A stretch of DNA of 24,962 nucleotides from a virus (taxonomy: Duplodnaviria; Caudoviricetes), in IMG/VR virus record IMGVR_UViG_3300012952_000128, positions 1-24,962 of that record. One strand, written 5' to 3'. Each line of letters opens with the position of its first letter. Position 1 is the stretch's first letter. Under the pieces are notes generated by a model, which worked only from the letters and a program-made list of their open reading frames with translations, was not told the DNA's origin and searched no databases. The translations under genes were made by a program, and so were the position numbers. Shown one piece after another: positions 2,917 to 19,651 of the stretch.

Positions 2917-3711
2917 CTATCCTTCCCACGACAAAAGCTTTGCGGCCTCTGCGAGACTGGCATCGCGATTTAGGTTGGGATCCTGGCGCAAGCGCTGGTT
3001 TTCCTCGGTCTGCATCGCGTTTGTCAGCGTGGATGATGGCGCAGGAATCGGAGCGGGAGGCTTCCCGCCGTTCCCCTGCAGTTTGTCTTGGATAAGCTTT
3101 CGAGTCGCTTCGGACTCCAAGAGCTTATCGATTTGACCGGTGAGATGGGCCTCCACTTTACGAGCGGCCTCCTGCTCACTCATGACCTCTCCGGTGCTTT
3201 GATGGTGCTGCGTCATGAGCTGCCAGACCTGATCAGCGCTCCCAGTAATACGGGTGAGCGGAGTATCCTCCGCGCTGCTGATATAGGTTCTGACCTGCTC
3301 CCGAGCCTCTGTCAGTGCCGCATCCATCCTCGCTTGATCGGCGGCCTCACGTTGCTGACTGAGCTCCTGGCGCATCTGCGCCATCTCGTCGCGGATACCC
3401 GCGACAGGATCTTCCTGGGTGGCCAGGCGCTTCGATACATCCTCGCGCTTGATGCCCGAGCGCTCAAGGAACGCCACCGGGTCGGCCTTCGCCAGCTGCT
3501 GCAGAGCTTGGCTCTGCTGTACGGCAGCGTGCTGGTCCTCGGCAATCTGCCGGGCCTCGCGGCTGCTCTTTTCCTGCGCCATCAGCGCCCGGAGAGCCTC
3601 GGCGGCCTTGGGGGTGTTGATGTAGTCACGATCCGCACGCGGATCGGCTGCAGGGGTTTCCGGCGCTTCACTTGCCGGTTCACTCGTTGTCGGTGTTTGC
3701 TCGTCTGACAT
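2917..3711 (-). CDS. Capsid scaffolding protein (putative)
   Basis: 264 aa, with acidic/Pro-rich N-terminus, Gln/Glu/Ala-rich coiled-coil core and short C-terminal helix. Lies between portal and capsid. Confidence 0.7.
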   Translation of the reverse strand: MSDEQTPTTSEPASEAPETPAADPRADRDYINTPKAAEALRALMAQEKSSREARQIAEDQHAAVQQSQALQQLAKADPVAFLERSGIKREDVSKRLATQEDPVAGIRDEMAQMRQELSQQREAADQARMDAALTEAREQVRTYISSAEDTPLTRITGSADQVWQLMTQHHQSTGEVMSEQEAARKVEAHLTGQIDKLLESEATRKLIQDKLQGNGGKPPAPIPAPSSTLTNAMQTEENQRLRQDPNLNRDASLAEAAKLLSWEG

Positions 3712-3719
3712 TGCGTTCC

Positions 3720-5552
3720 TTAGACCGGCATGGTGCCGTCAGTAGCGCCAATTGCTGTAGGCGGCGCTCCACCCATCCCCGGAGCCGGTGGGGCTCCAGG
3801 CATCATCATCCCCTGCGCATTCGCCAGCGCTTGCTGTCTCGCCTGCTCCATCATCAGGTGCGTCTGCGCGAGGTACTCACGCATCAAGGAGAGCCGCTCG
3901 GGCTCGACGTTGTTTTGCTCCGCCTTCATGAGCGCGGCGGTGACCTTCTTCAGGGCGAGCTGATGGTCCTGATAGGGCTCGGGCGGTGTATAGACGCCCT
4001 CGTCGAGCATGAGCTCGACGTTCCGGTCGATGAGCGTGGACGCGGCCCGGTCCAGGCTTAGCTTTGCTTCGAGGTCCGGGAAGTCGAGCAGGTCCTTTGC
4101 TTCCTCGGGACCGACCAGGCCGAGGGCGATCATCTGCTCGACGAACGCCAGGCGGCCACTCGGGGTGACCGGCAGGCTGGAGCTCGGGTGCACCTTGAGG
4201 ACATAGCTGTCAGCGTCCATGTCCACGGCCTCCCAGTCGACCACGTCGATCGTCTTGGAGTCCTTCGCCACCACCACGCTGTGTCGGTTGTCCTCGGAGT
4301 AGATGTCTTTCCCAAGGCCGACGACCTGGCGCGCAGCCTCGACAAAGAGCTCCTCATACTGGCGGCTCACAGTGGTGAATCTGAGGGACTCAACGTCCTG
4401 GTATTCGCGGAGCGCCGCTCCGCTGTTGAGGCCGGCTGGCTTCATGCTCGTGGCTGCCATCTGGCTTATGCCTGCGATCTCGAATGAGCGGTTATACAGC
4501 CGCTCAAGGTGGTCGAAGATCTCCCGGTTCAGACTCGGCGGCGTCATCTGCACAGGCGGCTGACCGGTGTACGGGATGATGGTCCCGATCTCATTGTTGA
4601 AAAATGATTTGCGGATCTTGGAGCCGTTCTCGACGTAGATGCGGGGCACGCTCATCAAGTGAAACGCTCGCTGAATCTTCATCAGCAGTTTATTGATCTC
4701 GACCTGCATTCCCTGAATATCGCAGGCGACGCCCTCGCCCCAGAATCCAAGCATCGGGTCAGTCCAGCGCACGAACACGAACGGAAAGCTTCCCTTGTCC
4801 CACTGCTCATCCACGAGGGTCGCGTTGCTGATGCAAATGACGTGGCGGCCGTCCGTGGCACCTTCGCCTGATGGCAGGTGCCACGCTTCGAGCACTTCGA
4901 TCTGATCGACCAGGGTCGTGTTCCCGAAGTCGATGTTATCGGTGGTGCGGCTGGCCTGACGAATCTCAGCGGCGTGATTCGGGAACAGCCTCAGCAGCAC
5001 CTGGCGATCGATGAATTTACGCTGGTAGAAATTGCGGGGTGAGCCATAGAAGCCATCGACCGGGTCGACGAAGAGCTCGCCCGGAAAGACGCGCTCAAAC
5101 TGCACCTCGCTGCCCTTGCGGTAGATCTTCAGACAGCCCGTCCCGAGCACCGCCGCATCAAGCAGGACCTTCGGCGCGAGCTGGTAGAGGCCGCCCTGGT
5201 AGAACGCTTGATCTGTGAACTGCTCCAAGAGGCGCGCCCGCCGCTGTAGGCTCCAATTTCCCCCGTGAGTCAGAAACCGGGGCCTCGGGCGCTGCCTCGA
5301 CAGTCGAGATACTGCGGTGTCACAAACGGCCTTGATGACGTTCATCGTCACCCGAGCAGTATCGACAACCTGATTATGGGAAAACGGCGTGTATCCCCCA
5401 TACTCGCTGTTTCCATAGAGCCGCACATAGCGCAGCAGTGAGGACAGACGCAGCGTGTCAGCGGTCTCGATGACACGGAACGCCTCTACCACGTCGCCAT
5501 AAGGCTGGTCAGCGGTCCACCATTGTAAGGCGATGTATGGCTCTTCCTGCAT
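3720..5552 (-). CDS. Portal (head-tail connector) protein
   Basis: 610 aa between terminase and scaffold, with P22-like portal features (DAAVLGTGCLK, FPFVFVRW...GFWGEG, IAGISQMA...SGAAL) and a Gln/Met/Pro/Gly-rich C-terminal tail. Confidence 0.85.
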   Translation of the reverse strand: MQEEPYIALQWWTADQPYGDVVEAFRVIETADTLRLSSLLRYVRLYGNSEYGGYTPFSHNQVVDTARVTMNVIKAVCDTAVSRLSRQRPRPRFLTHGGNWSLQRRARLLEQFTDQAFYQGGLYQLAPKVLLDAAVLGTGCLKIYRKGSEVQFERVFPGELFVDPVDGFYGSPRNFYQRKFIDRQVLLRLFPNHAAEIRQASRTTDNIDFGNTTLVDQIEVLEAWHLPSGEGATDGRHVICISNATLVDEQWDKGSFPFVFVRWTDPMLGFWGEGVACDIQGMQVEINKLLMKIQRAFHLMSVPRIYVENGSKIRKSFFNNEIGTIIPYTGQPPVQMTPPSLNREIFDHLERLYNRSFEIAGISQMAATSMKPAGLNSGAALREYQDVESLRFTTVSRQYEELFVEAARQVVGLGKDIYSEDNRHSVVVAKDSKTIDVVDWEAVDMDADSYVLKVHPSSSLPVTPSGRLAFVEQMIALGLVGPEEAKDLLDFPDLEAKLSLDRAASTLIDRNVELMLDEGVYTPPEPYQDHQLALKKVTAALMKAEQNNVEPERLSLMREYLAQTHLMMEQARQQALANAQGMMMPGAPPAPGMGGAPPTAIGATDGTMPV

Positions 5553-5554
5553 AG

Positions 5555-5770
5555 CTATGAGGAATAGTATAGCAATTCCTCGTCGGGTATCTCTTCCTCT
5601 GTCGTCTCCTCGGGTTGCGGGAAAGAATCGCCGCTAATGTCCATGGCGATTTCTCCGATCTTGAATTGAGTTACCCCAAGGAACTTCAACTGTTTAACCA
5701 GGTTGATTAGCTCTGGAACTGTCTTGATCTCCAGACTCGGAGCTTTTTCCTCTTCACCATCCCGATCCAT
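5555..5770 (-). CDS. Small acidic hypothetical protein
   Basis: 71 aa with GGAGGTG RBS. Overlaps the terL end by 17 nt and fills the terL-portal gap. Confidence 0.7.
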   Translation of the reverse strand: MDRDGEEEKAPSLEIKTVPELINLVKQLKFLGVTQFKIGEIAMDISGDSFPQPEETTEEEIPDEELLYYSS

Positions 5771-7172
5771 CGCTCACCTCCAAATCATCCCACCACGTAC
5801 GATCAAGCTGCTTGTCTAGCAGCCGCTCTTGTTCCTCTTCGAGCTGGTCTTCCTGCTGTTTCCAGTACTCGGGTGAGCCATGCCTCGGGGCTTCCGGGAT
5901 GATCTCGTCACGCCAATACTGATGACACCACCGCCAGGCGTATAGATACGCGTCCGCTAGATGGTCCTCGCAGCGCTCGTGAGGGGCCAGGCGGTGATCA
6001 TCCCACTGCAGCGCGTGCAGCTCGTCGAGCAGCGGCCCGTTATATCCTTCGACGATGGAGGCCACCCCGGTGGTCATGTCCCCAGACAACAGCTCGATGT
6101 ATGCCCTCTTCTCGCGCTTCTCCGCGTTCTTGATCTTCAGTCCCCAGCGCTCGGACATCTCAGCGGCGTAGGCTTTGCCCAGGCCGCCCGCGTCAGCGAC
6201 GATTGATTCGAACCTGAATTGACTGTTCAGGTCGGAGACAATCTGGGCGACGTCGCTGGGGAGCAGCTTGGTCTTTTTGAACGACTCGACCACGACCAGG
6301 CGGCCGGTGGCGGTCGAGTAAGCGCAGATCACAAACGCGGTCGAGTCGATGTAACCGAGGTCGAGCCCGAGTACGTATTCCCACTCATCATCGGGCAGCT
6401 CGGCGATCACCGGGATGTTGGGATAGATGAGGCTGGAGCTGTCGCGGATCCATTGGCCTTTGTACTCGCGCAGATATGTCGGGTTCGATTGGCTCCAGCC
6501 ATAGCGCCTGCAGCGGTCCTCCAACCATTGCGCAGCTCGCGGTATGTGCGGGTTGTCGAGCAGCGTCCAGTGATGCACTGACCAGGCGGATTCAGGCTGG
6601 CTGGCGTCGTAGAAGAACCCTCGACAGATGGCGTTAGGCGTCCCGGCGAGAACAATGGAACCGTCATAATCGAGGACGGCGGGCTCAAGAACGTCGCTCA
6701 CGAGCTCGGCGAGGTAGCTCTTGAAGGCCTGCGCCTCATCGACCACCACCAGCGGGTATTTCGGGCCTCGTAGGCGCTGGATCTCTTCCTCGGTGCTCGC
6801 GCCCGTCAGGAAGATTTGCGAGCCATTCGGCAGCGTACACGAGAGCTCGGCGGCGTTGAATCGCAGCCCAAGCTCGTTGCGTCGGTCGAGCTCTTGAAAC
6901 ACGGGCCACACGATGCGCTTCGCCTGCTGGCGAGTGATCGAGATGACCGGGATCATCGACCCTTCGAACGTGAACGCGGTATCAAGCGCCAGGACTGACA
7001 GAGCGAAGCTCTTGCCCGCTCGGCGCGAACATAGAGCCACCTTCGTCTTGCTCTCGTCGTCCAGGAGCGCCCTCTGCTGCGGAAACAGGAGCTTGCGGAA
7101 GTCCAGGCTCGCTCTTCTTCTTGCGCGTTCGCTTGCCTCGGCCAGGATTCGGCGAGCTCTCCTCTGGTCCAT
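5754..7172 (-). CDS. terL: Terminase large subunit
   Basis: Q motif (LFPQQR), Walker A (CSRRAGKS), Walker B (VVVDEAQ), coupling motif (GTP), RNase H-like nuclease motifs (GLDLGYID, DHLADA). ATG 7172 (MDQRR) preferred over the track's TTG 7346; start uncertain. Confidence 0.93.
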   Translation of the reverse strand: MDQRRARRILAEASERARRRASLDFRKLLFPQQRALLDDESKTKVALCSRRAGKSFALSVLALDTAFTFEGSMIPVISITRQQAKRIVWPVFQELDRRNELGLRFNAAELSCTLPNGSQIFLTGASTEEEIQRLRGPKYPLVVVDEAQAFKSYLAELVSDVLEPAVLDYDGSIVLAGTPNAICRGFFYDASQPESAWSVHHWTLLDNPHIPRAAQWLEDRCRRYGWSQSNPTYLREYKGQWIRDSSSLIYPNIPVIAELPDDEWEYVLGLDLGYIDSTAFVICAYSTATGRLVVVESFKKTKLLPSDVAQIVSDLNSQFRFESIVADAGGLGKAYAAEMSERWGLKIKNAEKREKRAYIELLSGDMTTGVASIVEGYNGPLLDELHALQWDDHRLAPHERCEDHLADAYLYAWRWCHQYWRDEIIPEAPRHGSPEYWKQQEDQLEEEQERLLDKQLDRTWWDDLEVSDGSGW

Positions 7173-7829: not shown

Positions 7830-8002
7830 CGCATGTAGCCCTTCACCACGGTCACGAGCGCCTGCACCTCGACCTGAAGCTCTTTGATGCGCTTCTCATG
7901 GCGGTCGATCTCCGCCATGATCCGCCGCACTTCGAACGAGATTTGCTCCACTCGGTGAACGGGTGAGCTTGTGGGTGGAACCGGGCGATCACCTACAGCC
8001 AT
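7826..8002 (-). CDS. Small coiled-coil hypothetical protein (58 aa)
   Basis: Below the ORF-track cutoff. GAGGAGG RBS; MAVGDRPVPP...IMAEIDRHEKRIKELQVEVQALVTVVKGYMR. Start and stop both overlap the neighbours' stop and start codons. Confidence 0.7.
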   Translation of the reverse strand: MAVGDRPVPPTSSPVHRVEQISFEVRRIMAEIDRHEKRIKELQVEVQALVTVVKGYMR

Positions 8003-8475
8003 CATTCCTCCTCGCCCTTCTCGGGCTTGAGTACCTGCAGATACTTCCGAGCTTCCTCGGCCTGCTCCAAGAGCTGAGCGTCCGAGAGCTGAGCAGGATC
8101 GGAGCGCTGCTCCTGGGCGCGCTCTTCCTTCATCAATTTGACGACGGCCTCGGTGACCTTGGCAAACTTGCCAGCCTCGGCAGCGGTGAGCTCCTCGCCC
8201 GAGCCGGTCTTAGCGCGCATCGCTGCGAGCTCCGCAGCGGCCACATGATACGCGTCCCCGAGGAGCTGGCCGATGTGAGGCCGAAGGCTCACCCGGTAGG
8301 TCCTGGCCTTCACCAGGCGCTCACGAGCGTGGATGTACTCAGTCGGATGAGCCCCATCATCCCTGCTGGGCTTGATGGGCGCTGGGCGCAGCTGTTCCTG
8401 CTCGCGCATGTACTCGTCAGCGCGCTCACCACTCTCGACGGTTACGATCCGCCTCCTGGGCTTGTCTTCGCTCAT
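8002..8475 (-). CDS. Putative terminase small subunit
   Basis: 157 aa, helical, first gene of the packaging/head operon, GAGGA RBS. C-terminal DPAQLSDAQLLE resembles the 'LSDEEL' tails of TerS proteins. Call is largely positional. Confidence 0.5.
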   Translation of the reverse strand: MSEDKPRRRIVTVESGERADEYMREQEQLRPAPIKPSRDDGAHPTEYIHARERLVKARTYRVSLRPHIGQLLGDAYHVAAAELAAMRAKTGSGEELTAAEAGKFAKVTEAVVKLMKEERAQEQRSDPAQLSDAQLLEQAEEARKYLQVLKPEKGEEE

Positions 8476-8495
8476 GTCCTCATTGCTCCGGTGAC

Positions 8496-8524
8496 AGGAT
8501 ACAGTAGTGCAGATTGCTTAACAA
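8496..8524 (-). promoter_or_regulatory. Candidate sigma70-type promoter for the packaging/head operon
   Basis: TTGTTA (8524-8519), 17-nt spacer, TATCCT (8501-8496), in an AT-rich patch ~20 nt before the ATG at 8475. Confidence 0.5.
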
Positions 8525-8614
8525 TTATCAAGATTGGTACGGATATTGCGCATTACAGTCCAGGTTCACTTTCCGGGATTGCCCTTAGGTTCCAATATCT
8601 TACATGCTAGTTCT

Positions 8615-8643
8615 TTCAATGATTTGGCGGAGTATGATAAACT
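8615..8643 (+). promoter_or_regulatory. Candidate sigma70-type promoter firing into the structured non-coding block
   Basis: TTCAAT (8615-8620), 17-nt spacer ending in TGn, then TAAACT (8638-8643), i.e. an extended -10. No credible plus-strand CDS follows. Confidence 0.45.
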
Positions 8644-8648
8644 CCCCC

Positions 8649-9407
8649 TAACGCTCGTTTCGGGTTAACGACAGAGCAAACTTTGTAGGTTGCGCTCTAC
8701 GTTGAGCCGAGCCCCTAGAGCAGGCCGGAAATGCAACCGGTGGAAAGACCGTCAGTCTTTACCACTTCCACCAGGCCAGGAACTAGACAGGCGGCTGCGC
8801 CTCAAGCGCAGTAGCCGACTGTCGTAAGCGTTGCAGGCTCGGCCAGATATAAACTAAGCGGCCGGTATACCCCATGACGTAGGGAGTCCACGGGTAGCCG
8901 AGAGCTGTATTTGTTTCTGGGATTCGATCTATTTAAGCCTCGATCCAGTTACGAGCGCGCCGCGCCCGCTCTGATGGCGGCGCGGCGCTCGTTGCGCTCC
9001 AGGTTCGCGACCGTAGCAGCGCACCAGGCGGACTAGACGCGAGCTCACCCCTGCTTGAATGGCCTGCGACAGGCGCAGGCAAGAAGGCTTGGGAGGAGCC
9101 AGTTAGAGCTGCGCGCTTATCGACAAGAGCGAAGAGGGCCAGGCGGGCACCGAGCTGGGTGGGGAAGTCTGCAAGCTCGGTGCAGGCCGGTGGCTCGTGT
9201 CCAATCTGGGCTCATGTCGGCGCTGCGCAACCGAGCTCCGAGTAACACCCGGTGCGATGGTAGACGCGCTTTCAGTACGTAGGAAACCCGCGCCGTCCAA
9301 GCGCGCTATCCAGCCTTTCTCTTCATTGCCCATTCGTCTCGCGCTGGTCGCGAGACCTCGGGGCGAGCTCTCCAGGCGTCTCACCCTGGTGTCGTCTCGC
9401 GTCTGCC
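8649..9407 (+). ncRNA. Candidate large structured non-coding RNA (or structured DNA element), family not recognised
   Basis: More than 15 mostly compatible, nested helices by eye, e.g. 8706-8713/8836-8843, 8732-8737/8830-8835, 8739-8745/8766-8772, 8951-8992 hairpin, 9035-9043/9396-9404, 9111-9118/9299-9306, 9147-9156/9174-9183, 9336-9343/9349-9356. Plus strand suggested by the promoter and several G-U pairs but not certain. Confidence 0.55.
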
Positions 9408-9450
9408 CGGGATAGACAACGGTTACCAAATGGGTACTTTTTGTGTGGAG

Positions 9451-9514
9451 GGTACCCCCCCTAACCCCCCCACGGGGGTATCAAAGAGGGCCCCGGGGGG
9501 AGGGGGTTGATACC
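9451..9514. other. C/G homopolymer tracts; candidate packaging (pac) or genome-terminus signal
   Basis: GGTA-C7-TAA-C7-AC-G5 ... CCCC-G6-A-G5, with inverted repeat GGTATCAA (9477-9484)/TTGATACC (9507-9514). Lies in the non-coding interval upstream of the terminase operon. Confidence 0.45.
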
Positions 9515-9692
9515 GCAAGAAAAGTTACCCACGTGTGCCATGATACCTGCAAGGGCACATGCATGTGTGCCACTGTTCCACCCACGGGACAATGTTCAGT
9601 GCATGCGCGCTTGCGCAAGTGGCACACTTCTGTGCCGTGATACATGCTACGGATCTTGCACCCCGTATCATGATACGTATCACGCGTGATAC
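9478..9692. repeat. Cluster of short TGATAC/GTATCA and TGTGCC/GGCACA repeats
   Basis: TGATAC or its complement at 9478, 9508, 9541, 9638, 9665, 9671, 9677, 9687. TGTGCC or its complement at 9534, 9554, 9566, 9621, 9631. Confidence 0.8.
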
Positions 9693-9768
9693 ACGCGTTC
9701 CACATCCCCCCTGGCCTCGACTCGTTGCACGTGAGATGCACGGTCCTAACGCGTCTAGAGGCCAGTCA

Positions 9769-9957
9769 CTACCGCACAGTGTGAAGATTATTCACAGTGG
9801 GTGTCAAGCCTACACCCTTGAGGTAAGCGCTCCTGGCCCTGGTCCAGCACTCGTAACTGCACACCCTCACGAGCCTCTCGGGCGTCCAGAATCCCCCCAC
9901 CCGCTGCGCTCTGCGCTGCTTACAGACGTGACAGGGCGTCATGAGCTCGCCTGGCAT
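9769..9957 (-). CDS. Small zinc-finger-like protein (CxxC...CSxxC)
   Basis: TPCHVCKQ...VRVCSYECW pattern. Start at 9957 or 9942 is more plausible than the track's 10044. Confidence 0.5.
   Translation of the reverse strand: MPGELMTPCHVCKQRRAQRVGGFWTPERLVRVCSYECWTRARSAYLKGVGLTPTVNNLHTVR
9778..9807 (-). promoter_or_regulatory. Candidate promoter with a palindromic operator, pointing into the repeat/structured region
   Basis: Perfect TTGACA (9807-9802), 18-nt spacer, CACACT (9783-9778). Palindrome TGTGAA-N5-TTCACA (9780-9796) overlaps the spacer and -10. Confidence 0.45.
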
Positions 9958-10114
9958 AGGAGCTCGAATCGCGCTCGTCTGCGGTGCGCAGCTGCTCCAG
10001 GACAGCCACCACGCGAGCGCTCGCACGGATGCGCTCGGCTGCATCCCGGAGCTCGTCGATCACGTCCAATAGCTGGGACGTCTCTCGGTCAATCTCTGCC
10101 TGACGCCTGTCCAT
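9920..10114 (-). CDS. Small coiled-coil hypothetical protein
   Basis: 64 aa, helical heptads, purine-rich upstream sequence, collinear with neighbours. Confidence 0.55.
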   Translation of the reverse strand: MDRRQAEIDRETSQLLDVIDELRDAAERIRASARVVAVLEQLRTADERDSSSYARRAHDALSRL

Positions 10115-10364
10115 TCTCGACCCCTCTGCTCGCTCGTGACCCGAGCTGCATCACCGCCCCTTCGAGCGCCGTCAGCGACCTTTGGAGCTCGCCCACAACC
10201 TCGACCAGCCGCGCATATACAGCGCGCTGGTCGTCCCTGTGTGCGTCCCCGAGCTCCCGCAGGTCCTTACGCATGCGCTCGATGAGCTGCGACTGCTGCC
10301 AGATGACCCAGCCAGCGACACCGAGGGCACCGCCCGCCCCTGTGATGACCTCCAGTCCGTCCAT
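10089..10364 (-). CDS. Single-TM plus coiled-coil membrane protein (holin-like)
   Basis: MDGLEVITGAGGALGVAGWVIWQQ hydrophobic segment then coiled coil. ATG is 2 nt after the hydrolase stop. Confidence 0.55.
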   Translation of the reverse strand: MDGLEVITGAGGALGVAGWVIWQQSQLIERMRKDLRELGDAHRDDQRAVYARLVEVVGELQRSLTALEGAVMQLGSRASRGVENGQASGRD

Positions 10365-11162: not shown

Positions 11163-11515
11163 CAGAACGGCCTCACGCGGTTGTGCATGCCTTCGTAGGA
11201 CGCACACAGCATGGTCATCGAGTCGCGGAGCTGCGCGAGCCGCGCCCGCAGGTGCTCCGAGCGCAGCACCAGCGCATCCGGCACGTGAGAGCCCGAGAAC
11301 CGGTCGAGGTCGGTCCGCAGCCTGGCGAGGGCGTCATCGAGGGCCGCAGCCTCACCCGCCACGTCCTGAAGTCCCACACGAGCGGCCAGCGTCCCGTCCT
11401 CCAGCACAGCCCGAGGCGACTCGGGCGGGGCGGTGAATGCGTACGGGTTAGCCCCGGCCTCGGCCTGCGCCTCGGCCTCCTGCGCCTGGAGCGCCTGATC
11501 ACCTGACTTGCTCAT
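11162..11515 (-). CDS. Hypothetical protein
   Basis: 117 aa, GGAGG RBS, ATGA overlap with the upstream gene. Confidence 0.65.
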   Translation of the reverse strand: MSKSGDQALQAQEAEAQAEAGANPYAFTAPPESPRAVLEDGTLAARVGLQDVAGEAAALDDALARLRTDLDRFSGSHVPDALVLRSEHLRARLAQLRDSMTMLCASYEGMHNRVRPF

Positions 11516-12009
11516 GCCTCGCCTCCCTTCACGGTCCTGAACTGCTGTGCGTTTGCGTCATCGAGCTGTTCGCGTGTGCTGGCCAGCTCCCGGGCCACAT
11601 GGCACAGCTCTCGGGTCTGCCACCGCACGAGCCAGATCAGCTCACGGATGGTGTATTCGGTCTGCGTCACCCGGTCGTACGCGTCCTCCTGCGACCGGAT
11701 GAGCTGCGCTAGGTCGACGCTCATGATCGCCGTTTCGAGCCGCCCGAACGCGGACACCAGGGCGGTGGGATAGTCCGGCTCGCTCGGCGGCATGTCCACG
11801 CTCACCTGATCGAGCAGATGCGCGGGAAGCTGATCGAGCCGCACGGGCTCGCCCTCCTCTGCAGCCTGGCGAGGCTGCTCATCACGAGCGCGCATCACCT
11901 CCGCCTGGACGAGGCGCATGCACTTGGGGCACGTGAGTCCGAACGTGGTGTCGGTCATCTGAGCGCGGGGCGTCTCCGTCCCGCAGTAGGCGCAGGCTGC
12001 GCAGCTCAT
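11512..12009 (-). CDS. Hypothetical protein with N-terminal Zn-ribbon (CAYC...CPKC) and C-terminal coiled coil
   Basis: 165 aa, GGAGG RBS, ATGA overlap, two CxxC pairs. Confidence 0.7.
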   Translation of the reverse strand: MSCAACAYCGTETPRAQMTDTTFGLTCPKCMRLVQAEVMRARDEQPRQAAEEGEPVRLDQLPAHLLDQVSVDMPPSEPDYPTALVSAFGRLETAIMSVDLAQLIRSQEDAYDRVTQTEYTIRELIWLVRWQTRELCHVARELASTREQLDDANAQQFRTVKGGEA

Positions 12010-14826: not shown

Positions 14827-15011
14827 GGCTGCTCCAGTCTCAGGATCTCCTGACTCGCGAGATGGAGCAGGGTACCGAGGGCGTATGGCTCCTCGGTGAC
14901 CTGATGCGTGCGGCCATACCTGTCATGGATGACCGCACGCCAGAGCTGACCGTCCCGCCCTACCTGTATTTGATAGTTCCGAGACGGCCGCTCGCTCTCA
15001 GAATGGGGCAT
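14823..15011 (-). CDS. Hypothetical protein
   Basis: 62 aa, GGAG RBS, stop overlaps the MTase ATG. Confidence 0.6.
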   Translation of the reverse strand: MPHSESERPSRNYQIQVGRDGQLWRAVIHDRYGRTHQVTEEPYALGTLLHLASQEILRLEQP

Positions 15012-15294
15012 CGCTCCGCTGCTCGGCGGGAGCGGAGTTCAGCCACGCGAGGATCTGAGGCTGGTCACAGCGCACGTCCACAAACCAGCGCTTGCCCTCG
15101 GCGAGCGAGCGCAGCCAATCGGTGATCATCTTCATGGGGTACTTCGACGTGTCACCGCCCTCGTCACTCTTCTCCGCGATGCTGATGCTGATGCGATTGC
15201 TCATGCGCTGATTGCGCCAAGCGGTGAGGATGTCGAACCGCTCCTCGGTGTTCTCTTTGTTGGTGATGCTGACGCTGAATAGAGGTCCTGCCAT
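14998..15294 (-). CDS. Putative single-stranded DNA-binding protein
   Basis: 98 aa, beta-rich, ends SDAPF like the SSB acidic-PF tail. Follows the exonuclease-annealase pair. Confidence 0.5.
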   Translation of the reverse strand: MAGPLFSVSITNKENTEERFDILTAWRNQRMSNRISISIAEKSDEGGDTSKYPMKMITDWLRSLAEGKRWFVDVRCDQPQILAWLNSAPAEQRSDAPF

Positions 15295-15346: not shown

Positions 15347-16108
15347 TCAGGAACGACTGGTGTCTTGGATGGTGTACGACTCGGGCTCCTGCGCCTGGTC
15401 AGGCCGCGGCGGCCTGGTGTGTGCGCCGCCTCCCAGAGCCTCCTCCCGCGCCACCCACGTACTCATGAGCTTGCCGTAGCTCCCGCTGAGGTCATCCTGC
15501 AGGCTCTTGATTGCCCCCTTGAGTAGGTCGTCGCCATAGAGCTCGGCGAGCGTGCGCTTCGATGCGATGGAGTCGGCCAGCGCCTTGTGCCTGGCGTCCA
15601 CTGGCGCAGCCTTTGCGCCCCCGTTCACCGGGCGTGTGGGCTTGGTGCCCACGCCCGGCCTGGGCGTCGCTGGTGCGGTCTCTGGCGTCTCCTGCGCAGG
15701 CACGTCCTCCCCAGCATAGATGTAGTGACCGAGGCCAAAGAGCGCGAGGCACTTGGTCATGGCTCGCTGACGACAGTCGTTGATCTGTCGGGCGGTGGGC
15801 TGAGCTACCGCCTTGTGTCGGTGGTCCATCACGGGCAATGACATCTCGCGGCGCAGTCCCTCGATCTCAATCGAGCAGAACACAGCGCAGGTGCCGTCCT
15901 CGTAGGTCATCACATCGCGCTCTCCGAAGCGCTCATAGGTGAGCTGCGCGTCTGGGTAGTGCTCCATCAGCACGCCCCACGCCCATGCCCAGCTCAGATA
16001 CGAGAGACCGTTACGCTTCTGAACTCTCTTGCTCACGTCGATGGCGCTCAAGGTCTGCCATATCTCCGCCGCCTTCTTCCTGCGTTGCTCCGGTGTCATT
16101 CTCATCAC
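15347..16108 (-). CDS. Sak-type (DUF1071, Rad52-like) single-strand annealing protein
   Basis: IDVSKRVQKRNGLSYLSWAWAW...YPDA, LPVMDHRHKAV, INDCRQRAMTKCLALFGLGHYIYAGED are the characteristic DUF1071 motifs. AGGAGG RBS. Confidence 0.88.
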   Translation of the reverse strand: MMRMTPEQRRKKAAEIWQTLSAIDVSKRVQKRNGLSYLSWAWAWGVLMEHYPDAQLTYERFGERDVMTYEDGTCAVFCSIEIEGLRREMSLPVMDHRHKAVAQPTARQINDCRQRAMTKCLALFGLGHYIYAGEDVPAQETPETAPATPRPGVGTKPTRPVNGGAKAAPVDARHKALADSIASKRTLAELYGDDLLKGAIKSLQDDLSGSYGKLMSTWVAREEALGGGAHTRPPRPDQAQEPESYTIQDTSRS

Positions 16109-16259
16109 CTCCTAGTCCATGGCGCTTCTCAGCCATGGTCAGTACTCGCTTGATCCCCGCCGCCGCTGCGCGGGAGAAGTTCACGCCCGGGTCAACCTGG
16201 GCGATGCGGCGCATCCGCTTCCTGTGATCGTCAGGGATGTATATCGTCACGTACGCCAT
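16011..16259 (-). CDS. Ribbon-helix-helix (Arc/CopG-like) DNA-binding protein
   Basis: GGAGGAG RBS before ATG 16259. YVTIYIPDDHRKRMRRIA...NFSRAAAAGI gives an alternating beta strand plus two helices. Confidence 0.6.
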   Translation of the reverse strand: MAYVTIYIPDDHRKRMRRIAQVDPGVNFSRAAAAGIKRVLTMAEKRHGLGGDENDTGATQEEGGGDMADLERHRREQESSEA

Positions 16260-17091
16260 CAAACTCCTCCCAGAACTGCGACACCTGCTCACCGAGGTAG
16301 TCGCAGAAGTCATGGTCACGCATGCACACCCACGCTCTGAGGTCCATGCCGCCGATGTTCGTCACCAGCATCGACCACTGCGGACCAGCGCGCCTGGAGC
16401 CGAGCACCGCGAGCTGCATCTGCACCTGATACGCGTGCTGATAGGGGATGCCCCACGTCTCGTGATGCGCCTCGGGTCCGCGCTCGAAGAGCATCTTCGG
16501 ATCGCGCTCGCCGCCCTTCGGTTTGAAAATGGCGCGCTGGCGCTTCATTTTGACCTCTACGAGCCCGGGGCCGTACTCCTGACCGAGGCGGTAGACCTCT
16601 TTGCGCAGGGGCCCTAGCCAGCCTGTGTCACGCTCATCGCGGCCGTCGAGAAACTCCGGGTGAGCCTGGACCTCCCACATGGGATCGGGCAGACACCAGC
16701 CGTCGATGGTCGCTCCCATGCGCGGGTACGCAAGGGATTCATACATGTGATTCACGCGCACCATCGGCACGCCGATGATGTGACCCGCATCGGCGAGGAT
16801 GCGAGGCTCGCAGCGTGAGCCCCACGCCATCGCCGTGTTGACGGTAAGCTCCTGGCGCTCGCGGAACTTGCGCAGCAGCGCGGCGCGCTCGCTCATCCCC
16901 CAGTCTGCGGCGTCGCGGCGGTGGTACTGACACTGGCCGAGCAGCGCAGACGCCCAGGAGGCGGTTAGGTTCTGCCATCGGCGGGCCTTCCATGCCTCGG
17001 TGTCCTCGCCCGCATCGCCGCCGTAGAGGCATGCCTGCGGGTCTACCCCTGCCATCGGGTCGATCCCGACCCGCTCCATATCGTCGCTCAT
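16231..17091 (-). CDS. YqaJ/lambda-exonuclease-like recombination nuclease
   Basis: W...R...LTAS, AMAWGSRCEP, MGATIDG, LVEVK, YQVQMQLAV are YqaJ-family PD-(D/E)XK motifs. Start 17091 with GAGGGG RBS. Confidence 0.85.
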   Translation of the reverse strand: MSDDMERVGIDPMAGVDPQACLYGGDAGEDTEAWKARRWQNLTASWASALLGQCQYHRRDAADWGMSERAALLRKFRERQELTVNTAMAWGSRCEPRILADAGHIIGVPMVRVNHMYESLAYPRMGATIDGWCLPDPMWEVQAHPEFLDGRDERDTGWLGPLRKEVYRLGQEYGPGLVEVKMKRQRAIFKPKGGERDPKMLFERGPEAHHETWGIPYQHAYQVQMQLAVLGSRRAGPQWSMLVTNIGGMDLRAWVCMRDHDFCDYLGEQVSQFWEEFDGVRDDIHP

Positions 17092-17114
17092 GGTGTCCCC
17101 TCGTTGCTCAGGTG

Positions 17115-17156
17115 TTGACGTCCAGAGTGATATACGTATATGGCCATAGGGAGCAA
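17115..17156. promoter_or_regulatory. Symmetric divergent control region between exonuclease and helicase genes
   Basis: 12-bp palindrome ATATACGTATAT (17130-17141), with TTGACG (+, 17115) and TTGCTC (-, 17156) equidistant from its centre. Confidence 0.5.
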
Positions 17157-17170
17157 GGGGGAAATGAGTT

Positions 17171-18025
17171 ATGCAGACATTGGCTGACCTCGTACACGAG
17201 GCCATGGGGAGCGGATTGCTCCAGCCGAATCCACCTCAGTGGATGCGCCTGGGGCTACCGGAGATCGATCGAGCGATGGGAGGAGCGGGCATCCAGCCCG
17301 GAACGGTGGGCATACTCGGAGGGGGAACAGGGTCCTGTAAATCGACGCTGGCGATGCACATGGCGTTGAACTCTGACGACCAGTGGGGGGTGGTGAGCTT
17401 GGAAGACAACGCGGCTCAGCTGGGGCTGCGGGCGGTGGCCATGGCAGCGCGCATCGACTCGCGGCGGCTGCTGCGGGGGACCATGGGTCTGGAGCTGGAC
17501 AGCAGCGTGAGCGAGCTGCTCGATCGTCAGTTTCCGCTCTTCGAGTGCCCCACCGATGCGACGCAGGAGGAGGCGCTCGTGTGCTGTCGTCGCCTGGCGC
17601 AGGCCGGATGCAAGGTGATCATTCTGGACTATCTGACGAAGGTGAGGTCAGACCCAGGAGCGGACCGGCGCAGCGACATACAGCGGCTCTGGGCTGGCCT
17701 GCAGCGCTGCGCAGTCGATGAGCAGGTCGCGGTGATCGCGGTGACCCAGCTCAATCGTTCGAGCCAGCGAGGCGAGCCGAGCTTGCAGAGCCCGAGCGAG
17801 TCGAGCTCTATCGAGGTCGAAGCGCGCTTTGCGCTCATGGCCTGGACAGCGCCCGATGAGCTGAGAGAAGACACCCAGGTGATCAGCGTGAAGCTCGCCA
17901 AGAACATCTGGGGAGGCGTCGGCACCACCGATCGGTTCGTTCGCTCCGGTGCCAATCTGGTCCATGAGTCAGAGTGTGGCTATGGCCTTTCACCGAAGGA
18001 ATACAGCGATGACCGACCACGCTAA
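17171..18025 (+). CDS. DnaB-like (SF4) helicase, C-terminal ATPase domain only
   Basis: GLPEIDRAMGG, Walker A GGTGSCKST, SLED, Walker B IILDYL, TQLNR, SSSIEVEA, AKN. Confidence 0.85.
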   Translation: MQTLADLVHEAMGSGLLQPNPPQWMRLGLPEIDRAMGGAGIQPGTVGILGGGTGSCKSTLAMHMALNSDDQWGVVSLEDNAAQLGLRAVAMAARIDSRRLLRGTMGLELDSSVSELLDRQFPLFECPTDATQEEALVCCRRLAQAGCKVIILDYLTKVRSDPGADRRSDIQRLWAGLQRCAVDEQVAVIAVTQLNRSSQRGEPSLQSPSESSSIEVEARFALMAWTAPDELREDTQVISVKLAKNIWGGVGTTDRFVRSGANLVHESECGYGLSPKEYSDDRPR

Positions 18026-18467
18026 GATCGGACGCAGGAGCCGCCAGAAGGGCGCTCAAGGCGAGCGCGACGTCGCCAATGAGCTACGCGTCATCTATCC
18101 AGACGCGGCCCGAGGTGGGCTGCTCCAGACCCAATACGGGCGCGGGTCGAATGCCTGCGACGTCGAGCACACCCCGTGGTGGGTGGAGGTGAAACGAGGA
18201 GCGCGCCCCAACATACAAGGGGCGTTCGAGCAGGCCACGAGCGAGACCGACGGGAGACCGCCGCTGGTGGTGAGCCGGAAGGATCGCTCTGTGTGGCTGG
18301 CGACGATGAGCCTGGAGCGGTTCATTCACCTGGTGCGGATCATCCAGGAATATCAGAAGGCTCTCGATCCAGAATTTCAGATAGTAGCGGCGGAGTCTGG
18401 TCCCCAAGCATCAAACGATATTGACTCGTCATCAGCTCCCGAAGCTGCCGACGCTGACGATTCGTGA
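18009..18467 (+). CDS. Holliday junction resolvase-like PD-(D/E)XK nuclease
   Basis: SRQKGAQGERDVANEL, CDV, WVEVKR, PLVVSRKDRSVWL. Start taken at ATG 18009, overlapping the helicase end. Confidence 0.8.
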   Translation: MTDHAKIGRRSRQKGAQGERDVANELRVIYPDAARGGLLQTQYGRGSNACDVEHTPWWVEVKRGARPNIQGAFEQATSETDGRPPLVVSRKDRSVWLATMSLERFIHLVRIIQEYQKALDPEFQIVAAESGPQASNDIDSSSAPEAADADDS

Positions 18468-18930
18468 GGCCCGCCCACACGTCCTCTGTCTGGATGCCGC
18501 GGGAAAACACGAGCTGAGGGTTACGCGTGGTGTGACCCCTGCTCGTGTGGCTCCAGACGTCGAAGCTGGGGCCGAGGTGGGCTGCTAACTCTCGTGCGAA
18601 CCATTGGCCCGTCGAGCAGGCATAGAGGATGATGGTTGCGCGGTCGGTGCAGGACTTGATCCCCTCGGCCAGACACTCCGCGCCCGTCTTGCCCGTGAAG
18701 CCAAGCTCAATCCCGGAGCGCCACCCATGGCAGAAGAAGGCCAGCTGTGCCGCCTGGCGGCTCTCGCGGCTCCAGAGCTCGGCCAGCACCAGATCACGAA
18801 GCTGTCCCTTGCTGCGTGCCTCGGGATCGAGAAGCACCGCGTGACCGTTGTTCATCTCGCACCACTTGCGGGCCTCCGGGATGAATGCGCCTGTCGCGTC
18901 GTGTTTGCCTGGGCTGTTGGTGCCCCGCAC
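18340..18930 (-). CDS. Caspase-like (clan CD) cysteine peptidase-fold protein
   Basis: LAFFCHG and IILYACSTG give a His-Gly / Ala-Cys dyad, each after a hydrophobic strand, as in CHAT, C80 and DUF4347-type domains. GTG start is weak. Confidence 0.6.
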   Translation of the reverse strand: MRGTNSPGKHDATGAFIPEARKWCEMNNGHAVLLDPEARSKGQLRDLVLAELWSRESRQAAQLAFFCHGWRSGIELGFTGKTGAECLAEGIKSCTDRATIILYACSTGQWFARELAAHLGPSFDVWSHTSRGHTTRNPQLVFSRGIQTEDVWAGLTNRQRRQLRELMTSQYRLMLGDQTPPLLSEILDREPSDIPG

Positions 18931-18935
18931 GAATG

Positions 18936-19169
18936 CTAGAGCTGGTCGTCCGGGTGCGGCGGCGGGCTCGGCTTGGTCAGGGGCAGCTTGAGCTTGCGGT
19001 GGCTGTCCAGTGGCTGCAGGACGCTCAGCCGCGCTAGCGTCTGCTGGATCTTCAGCAGCGCGGCGTCGTCTTTTGGGGTGGGCGTCAGCCTGGTGATGAA
19101 GCTCGCCGCAGCCACGAGCGCGCCCGCTGCGGCCACGAGTTCACCCCAGTGATTGAGCAGCCAGCTCAT
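18936..19169 (-). CDS. Holin-like small membrane protein
   Basis: 77 aa. WLLNHWGELVAAAGALVAAASFITRL hydrophobic segment followed by TPTPKDD, a motif I recall from small phage membrane proteins. Confidence 0.6.
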   Translation of the reverse strand: MSWLLNHWGELVAAAGALVAAASFITRLTPTPKDDAALLKIQQTLARLSVLQPLDSHRKLKLPLTKPSPPPHPDDQL

Positions 19170-19651
19170 CGCCCCGAGCTCCGCCAGATGCGCAGCGAGC
19201 TCTCGCCCGTGTTCTGGACGTACGACAGATACTGGATCGGATAGCGAGCGTCTCCGACGCCCTTCATAAAGAGCTGCGACATGTCGAAGCGGACCGTGGT
19301 TCCGCCTGGGATATAAAGTGGCGCTTCGTTGTCCGGGATGGGGTTCGGGCCGGGGCTCGTGGCGGTGCTGGTGGGGTCGATGAAACCAGGATCACCGGCA
19401 AGCTGCGGGCTCACTGGTGCAACGGTCGAGCCGAAGAACCGCACCCAGACGCCATTGATGATCGGAGCGCCGACCGACTGAATCGAGAGGAAGTTGGTCA
19501 ACATGGTGTGCGATCCATCGGGCGCGCTTCCCGTGATGTCCATGGGAACACCCGGAATGTAAAACACGTTGACGTCCGTCGTCGCCTCAAGCGAATACAT
19601 CGCGATCGGCGGTCTGATTTGCTGTGCCTTGTCCACGTTTGCGCTGCTCAT
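19166..19651 (-). CDS. Hypothetical protein, probably virion-associated
   Basis: 161 aa, GGAGG RBS, ATGA overlaps at both ends, beta/Pro-rich. Confidence 0.7.
   Translation of the reverse strand: MSSANVDKAQQIRPPIAMYSLEATTDVNVFYIPGVPMDITGSAPDGSHTMLTNFLSIQSVGAPIINGVWVRFFGSTVAPVSPQLAGDPGFIDPTSTATSPGPNPIPDNEAPLYIPGGTTVRFDMSQLFMKGVGDARYPIQYLSYVQNTGESSLRIWRSSGR

Follow-up and report, generated by a model that had tools for sequence, protein, structure and literature searches.

The window, the whole 24,962-nt stretch of uncultured tailed-phage DNA analysed here, carries on its + strand, opposite to the terminase operon, a folded non-coding element of 763 nt (8650-9412) that is conserved, covarying, uncatalogued and present in two phage clades, A and B; the element is real. 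It is probably an RNA, and its function, in every step, is what we infer: in the best reading, to which we give a probability of roughly 0.35, it would be a folded RNA that serves as primer precursor at a replication origin without an initiator, resembling ColE1/MRB RNA II in action while unrelated in sequence. If this is true, a tailed phage has an RNA-primed origin, and a role is suggested for folded elements ahead of terminase genes; otherwise the element still adds either a new phage RNA of large size or a folded ssDNA signal of unusual length. To our knowledge, RNAs this large have rarely been described from bacteria or phages, and we know of none from a phage with an assigned function.

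Family searches recognised terL, portal, an SU10-like capsid protein, Dcm, Sak, a YqaJ-like exonuclease and a DnaB-like helicase domain in the window. The terminase large subunit (5754-7172, - strand; phrog_2 E 3e-42, PF03237) is T4-like, and the first gene of the packaging operon is a 157-aa ORF (8002-8475, - strand), a putative TerS by its position. Neither family searches nor a PDB profile search gave a match to this ORF, an Atlas lead of 0.87 to a T5 TerS cluster lies under the Atlas bar, and the ORF is 40-41% identical to its clade B counterparts. Three of four viral contigs with this ORF (L002, L003, L004) start in or just ahead of it, perhaps because a genome ends or an assembly breaks there. 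Different inserted ORFs separate the terS-slot gene from terL in close relatives (L012 at 3329-4624; L105, L109, L112); they are labelled methylase-like or PAPS-reductase-like from reading the sequences by eye. The gene-free stretch to which an earlier note on this DNA had drawn attention is real, and at 8476-9768 its extent is larger than was reported there. Beyond it lie three small minus-strand ORFs (9769-9942, 9920-10114 and 10089-10364), whose differences from the relative L001 resemble third-position changes as judged by eye; inside the 3' end of the first, at 9776-9814, a palindrome (TGTGAA-N5-TTCACA) and a minus-strand TTGACA are nearly invariant in L001 and two contigs of the RNA library X1, and may be an operator or promoter. 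An Atlas search with ORF 11512-12009 yielded no family. The closest terL copies among genome bins are in two Myxococcota bins (100% and 54%), and members of the terL cluster also occur in bins labelled Planctomycetota and Hyphomicrobiaceae; the phage host is therefore only putative.

L001 comes from a 34.9 kb record (G003; 89% complete by CheckV) that is collinear with the window and whose two ends join when aligned onto it. It is the sole full relative found, so that clade A comprises two full sequences, 81-89% identical across alignable blocks; identity is 82% over 8665-9116 and 97% over 8600-8664. The element is 763 nt long in both. No conserved protein-coding signal was found in it: no frame is conserved with L001, given 1-nt indels and 56-nt swaps, the longest stop-free stretch in any frame is at most 102 codons, and three ORFs inside the element match no family. 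Compared with shuffled sequences on both strands, as the earlier note had proposed, the element folds with z of -3.41 (+) and -2.46 (-) by RNA energies, and of -6.19 and -4.23 by DNA energies. Folding z alone lends weak support because coding windows can score equally low (150-nt windows attain -3.65 and -4.1), and the RNA and DNA values do not discriminate RNA from ssDNA.

Covariation argues for the fold. Among 125 pairs predicted from the window, 9 are compensated in L001, compared with 1.17 +/- 1.05 under a null that ignores clustered changes and template switching, and this count was reached in 1 of 5000 randomisations; 22 pairs are broken (28.7 in the null), and therefore part of the single-sequence fold is wrong. 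In a curated set of 131 pairs, picked with the window and L001 both in view, 114 are unchanged, 13 compensated, 2 one-sided and 2 broken. An X1 contig adds partly independent changes, 17 of its 27 listed differences being common to L001.

From its 5' end, the element starts with a hairpin at 8666-8704, where two pairs are compensated relative to L001 and one goes from U.G to C-G. Domain 1 (8706-8843), also named in the earlier note, is kept: its closing helices (8706-8711/8838-8843 and 8733-37/8830-34) are invariant, and both enclosed hairpins hold with compensation, in part at 8739-8772 and by four pairs at 8786-8823, where bulges are retained. The pairs of a hairpin at 8868-8896 are unchanged in L001; in the X1 contig, A-U turns into G.U at 8869/8895. 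Two adjoining hairpins (8952-9023) follow; the first (8952-8991) has three compensated pairs, seen in X1 too, and the second (8993-9023) is unchanged. The 3' domain (9027-9407) is closed by a candidate helix, 9027-32/9402-07, which is invariant, with one G.U. It contains a variable junction (9111-9306) closed by GCGCGC/GCGCGC, in which a 56-nt side domain comes after the core in the window and a 56-nt one before the core in L001. The core itself (9185-9246) consists of nested stems around the loop AATCT and has a homologous block in the element of the sister clade. Two 3' hairpins (9336-9391) show one compensated pair, in 9336-9356, and one A-U to G.U change.

The earlier note had drawn this 3' domain as a ladder of long-range helices. 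All seven long-range helices that it named in the element can pair in the window, six perfectly and 9044-51/9360-67 with one mismatch; in L001, 9111-16/9301-06 is unchanged, and three rungs fail, namely 9035-43/9396-9404 (4 of 9 mismatched; its place is taken by 9027-32/9402-07), 9044-51/9360-67 (3 of 8) and 9084-89/9312-17 (3 of 6), which leaves much of the ladder unsupported. Two of its hairpins likewise fall, 8917-8948 (4 of 10 pairs tried mismatch, the register being approximate) and 9147-9183 (5 of 10 broken). Those in the regions 8667-8703 and 8951-8992 and at 8993-9023 are kept in L001, as are the side hairpins 9062-9080, unchanged, and 9336-9356. It is most improbable that these hairpins are neutral and have merely been homogenised by template switching, with ordinary promoters and packaging sites among them. 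Such a process would fit the local position of 11 of the 13 curated compensations, the excess of transversions over transitions in 8665-9116 (49 to 29) and a clade A of two full sequences; it would not fit bulges and mismatches that are kept while adjacent pairs change, two compensations that span some 85 nt, or a core that persists between clades whose terL is 54% identical.

The candidate extended -10 promoter of the earlier note (8615-8643, + strand) is present as the sigma70-like TTCAAT-17-TAAACT with a TG extension and a predicted start near 8650, under the threshold of the promoter tool; it scores 9 in our own scan, where two of 56 rows score 10, and the region is covered by contigs of X1 and of a second library, X2, with few differences. 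No minus-strand promoter or terminator was called within the element. The 131 curated pairs contain 7 G.U positions and no A.C on the + strand; four variable positions turn G.U there (8666, 9155, 9383 and, in X1, 8869), and the terminal pair at 8732 turns C.A. A scan under strict stem criteria showed a signal for neither G.U nor A.C. The + strand is thus favoured by the conserved promoter-like site and the G.U changes, the latter a small count. A 4-bp hairpin with T5 (9424-9442, + strand), for which the tool called no terminator, is a weak possible 3' end. In the X1 contigs, one of which begins upstream of the promoter candidate, depth is 7.5 and 4.4 over the element, 6.4 over the terS-slot gene and 8.1 over a downstream box array; such similar low depth over element, promoter and flanks fits DNA carry-over, and the lack of any excess over the element comes from assembled contigs, which cannot reveal expression level. 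X2 spans little of the stretch.

The second clade comprises five loci (L106, L109, L111, L112, L200) with terL 53-56% identical to that of the window. Each has a conserved gene-free block of 440-510 nt preceding the homologue of ORF 8002-8475, whose folding z ranges from -1.3 to -4.0 whichever strand is taken. This block covaries, with 25 of 111 and 28 of 112 pairs compensated on the two strands, folding being equal on both; G.U counts do not decide its strand. L200 lacks one entire 66-nt side domain. The core of some 50 nt shared with window 9185-9246 was detected by blastn between L001 and L109 (E 3e-5), and a covariance model built from clade B only, its borders set with the blast match known, matches the window core at E 2.9e-4 and gives the core the top score in each clade A genome (28.8 and 24.1 bits, the runner-up reaching 11.7). 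Model R1 gave one match in 72 other loci (E 0.69) and matched 4 of 150 genomes at E <= 0.01 (26-30 bits), in each case in a long open frame where the motif is absent; since these chance scores equal those in clade A, homology of the core rests on the small search space and the shared position. Several units of tRNA arrays in other phages, with tRNA-like starts and ends and long inserts (L194 2430-2780 and equivalents in L198 and L191), one holding a second T-arm-like hairpin, fit the core pattern and not model R1; ARAGORN calls no tRNA in that stretch of L194. Each of the five clade B elements has at its distal border an invariant palindrome without covariation, TCTCATG-N6-CATGAGA (L109 1596-1615 and equivalents), which may be an operator.

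In clade A the core lies on the strand opposite to terL, and in clade B on the terL strand. Its U.G pair is retained in 7 of 7 sequences on the core's own strand, which has no evident promoter upstream in clade B; an invariant TTGACA (5 of 5 loci), called as part of the promoter TTGACA-18-TACTAT in L200, faces away from terS like the promoter of the window. Of the facts that none of the readings explains in full, this inversion of the core is the chief one. The element may instead be a large RNA of GOLLD/ROOL type that stands free and acts in trans, read from its own promoter at 8650 to about 9440, possibly self-assembling by loop-loop contacts, with its gene inverted between the clades, an alternative that we regard as only slightly less probable than the primer-precursor reading. 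Precedent for large phage RNAs of this kind exists (PMC12286853, PMC5737381). Side domains gained and lost as modules, conserved bulges and unpaired linkers, G.U without A.C among the curated pairs, the possible T5 hairpin end, a candidate pseudoknot in which one U.G turns to C-G (8801-07/9087-93) and the retained U.G pair would all suit it, and it accounts for the inverted core better than the primer-precursor reading does. It does not account for the clade B promoter, which is conserved facing the other way, and the element has no conserved GNRA or UNCG loop, no tRNAs nearby and no X1 depth excess, to the extent that contigs can show one.

The primer-precursor reading draws on what lies beyond the element. 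C-runs at 9454-9471 are followed by a G6AG5 run at 9495-9506 (+ strand), identical in L001, and an array of TGATAC/GTATCA boxes with palindromes (9478-9692) holds 8 of the 14 boxes in the window, likely protein sites in dsDNA. Although 9405-9830 is conserved, 1 of its 115 predicted pairs is compensated, and so the region reads as dsDNA sites. In 6 of 7 loci the G-run is on the strand leading away from terS, with GATAC boxes beyond; L111 has no G-run on that strand. ColE1 RNA II is 555 nt long, and in ColE1-type hybrid sites the promoter lies some 500 nt upstream of a G-rich run. A layout of this sort, a promoter-like site followed at some distance by a G-rich run, is present in 6 of 7 loci; from TTGACA to the G-run there are 492-551 nt in 4 of 5 clade B loci, and from promoter to G-run 880 nt in the window. 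The ColE1 and MRB plasmids replicate from RNA primers that are unrelated to each other (PMC6380287, PMC3035462), the MRB RNA II being at least 465 nt (PMC3035462), and G-rich runs stabilise mitochondrial R-loop primers (PMC3488243). By analogy, host RNA polymerase would start near 8650 and read away from terS, and the transcript would fold. Some of it would not end at the weak hairpin (9424-9442) but extend to the G6AG5 run and stay annealed there to its template, forming an R-loop. This RNA would serve host enzymes as primer for the leading strand, and the phage DnaB-like helicase would be loaded on the strand displaced.

A common layout in both clades, with a promoter-like site at the terS end facing the element and a G-run and box array beyond it, supports the primer-precursor reading, as does a gene complement in which a helicase is encoded and no initiator, primase, polymerase, integrase or reverse transcriptase was recognised in the window and the relatives scanned. 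The DnaB-like helicase (17171-18025, + strand; 284 aa, C-terminal domain only) is the sole replisome gene recognised. With the RusA-like resolvase that follows it (together 17171-18467; match on the L202 copy), it makes up the only recognised + strand genes of the window. Helicase, Sak, exonuclease and RusA were also recognised among the 36 proteins scanned in G003, and no initiator, polymerase or integrase was, the large ORFs 3329-4624 and 15559-19278 being outside that scan. The primase domain Toprim_4 is absent from 2 of 2 records and the reverse transcriptase PF00078 from 4 of 4 (control searches were positive in 3 of 14); many small ORFs of the phage match no family, and a small unrecognised initiator may hide among them. 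After Sak, a 98-aa ORF (14998-15294, - strand) with no family match ends in DAPF, which we take to resemble an SSB C-terminal tail. Against the primer-precursor reading, the core is on the predicted transcript in clade A and on the opposite strand in clade B, which is hard for one conserved RNA fold; L111 departs from the G-run rule; no RNA I-like antisense unit was identified; and the distant relatives L114, L151 and L158 have G/C runs and box arrays ahead of the operon without the long element, so that these may be packaging signals. Across 20 distant loci, sliding z-scores are low mainly over repeat arrays.

Mini-hairpins bear on the same question. GA-flanked cGNAg mini-hairpins are a motif of ssDNA priming sites, and such loops are described as much stabler in DNA than in RNA (PMC13037366). 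Among 46 loci, 12 occur in 107 kb upstream of terL and 1 in 368 kb elsewhere, an enrichment that suits the primer-precursor reading; they are found in 7 loci of three lineages, on either strand depending on lineage. All five clade B loci carry the motif, as GA-GC-GAA-GC-GA in four and as a longer-stemmed GCA version in L112; the window, L001 and L012 have none, which counts against that reading. In L136 (3400-3650), five clustered copies that follow an A-rich and a G/C run ahead of the terminase operon have the look of an ssDNA priming region. Selection could also act on pairing in ssDNA, as a priming or helicase-loading signal exposed in replication with transcription incidental, an explanation we hold to be unlikely. 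The clade B mini-hairpins favour it, the motif changes strand by lineage as the core does, and covariation cannot tell RNA from ssDNA (PMC5737381); base counts are strand-symmetric (A-T +1/-4, G-C +14/-1), which would equally suit a sense-antisense pair of the primer kind. Besides the missing motif in the window, 760 nt far exceeds the 223-349 nt of plasmid motifs proposed as ssDNA (PMC5737381), a conserved promoter-like site stands at the 5' border, and the energy z-scores give no preference for DNA.

The earlier note had linked the element to packaging or replication, and replication, by RNA or folded ssDNA, appears to fit the context best. An RNA that binds the prohead or terminase, as phi29 pRNA does, would agree with the fixed place beside the terS-slot gene in two clades and with the candidate loop pairings; we judge it very unlikely, because the large terminase is T4-like and no phi29-type motor, terminal protein or protein-primed polymerase was found. 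The TerS slot is moreover filled by an ORF, and pRNA is 174 nt long and is reported for no phages but phi29-like ones (PMC11476376).

Judged by Rfam, tRNA, intron, retron and pRNA tests, the large folded element fits no catalogued family, which upholds the novelty claimed for it. ARAGORN and Rfam gave no tRNA or tmRNA match, no group I or group II core model matched the element, which is intergenic, and no reverse transcriptase is linked to it as for retron or DGR RNAs. A resemblance to domain V of group II introns, seen in clade B, was dropped for want of Rfam support, and so was a 3' motif resembling group I. A pattern scan of metagenomes returned 76 loci, 75 due to chance and one the window's own record, and two further clade A patterns found only the record of L001 in viral contigs. 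Among GenBank phages no DNA match went beyond E 0.3, and the best terL matches were 23-30% identical; 401 genomes of the phylum of G001 gave 9 short GC-rich matches only. The literature searches gave no description of the element. The supplement files of PMC10690425 that were searched gave 0 matches; candidates there are at most 151 nt, so a fragment of the element could be listed.

Among known systems, phi29 prohead RNA is likewise a non-coding unit near packaging functions, whereas here the motor type differs and the element is four times longer and shows no similarity. The GNA mini-hairpin ssDNA signals (G4 origin, ssiA, N4 promoters) share their motif with the sister element and, in the same interval, with two further relatives; the element of the window lacks it and is several times larger. 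GOLLD and ROOL are, like the element, phage-borne, 500-800 nt long and multi-domain with variable peripheral parts. In the window and 5 loci nothing reached the gathering score of their covariance models, and by E-value there were only weak unrelated matches; the tRNA neighbours that they often have are absent (0 tRNAs by ARAGORN in the window, G003 and G004), pseudoknots are only suggested, and the element is known from sequence alone. From ColE1/MRB RNA II it differs in being carried by a tailed phage, with no sequence or model match to RNA I/II in the Rfam search, no antisense RNA I found and an origin role that is a candidate one; the likeness lies in a long, non-coding, folded and here predicted transcript unit beside a candidate origin, with no initiator recognised and a similar length in clade B. 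We advance tentatively, as a proposal more apt to fail than to hold, that a tailed-phage family may start replication from an ornate primer RNA of 500-850 nt without an initiator protein, which would make a third independent RNA-primed class beside ColE1 and MRB.
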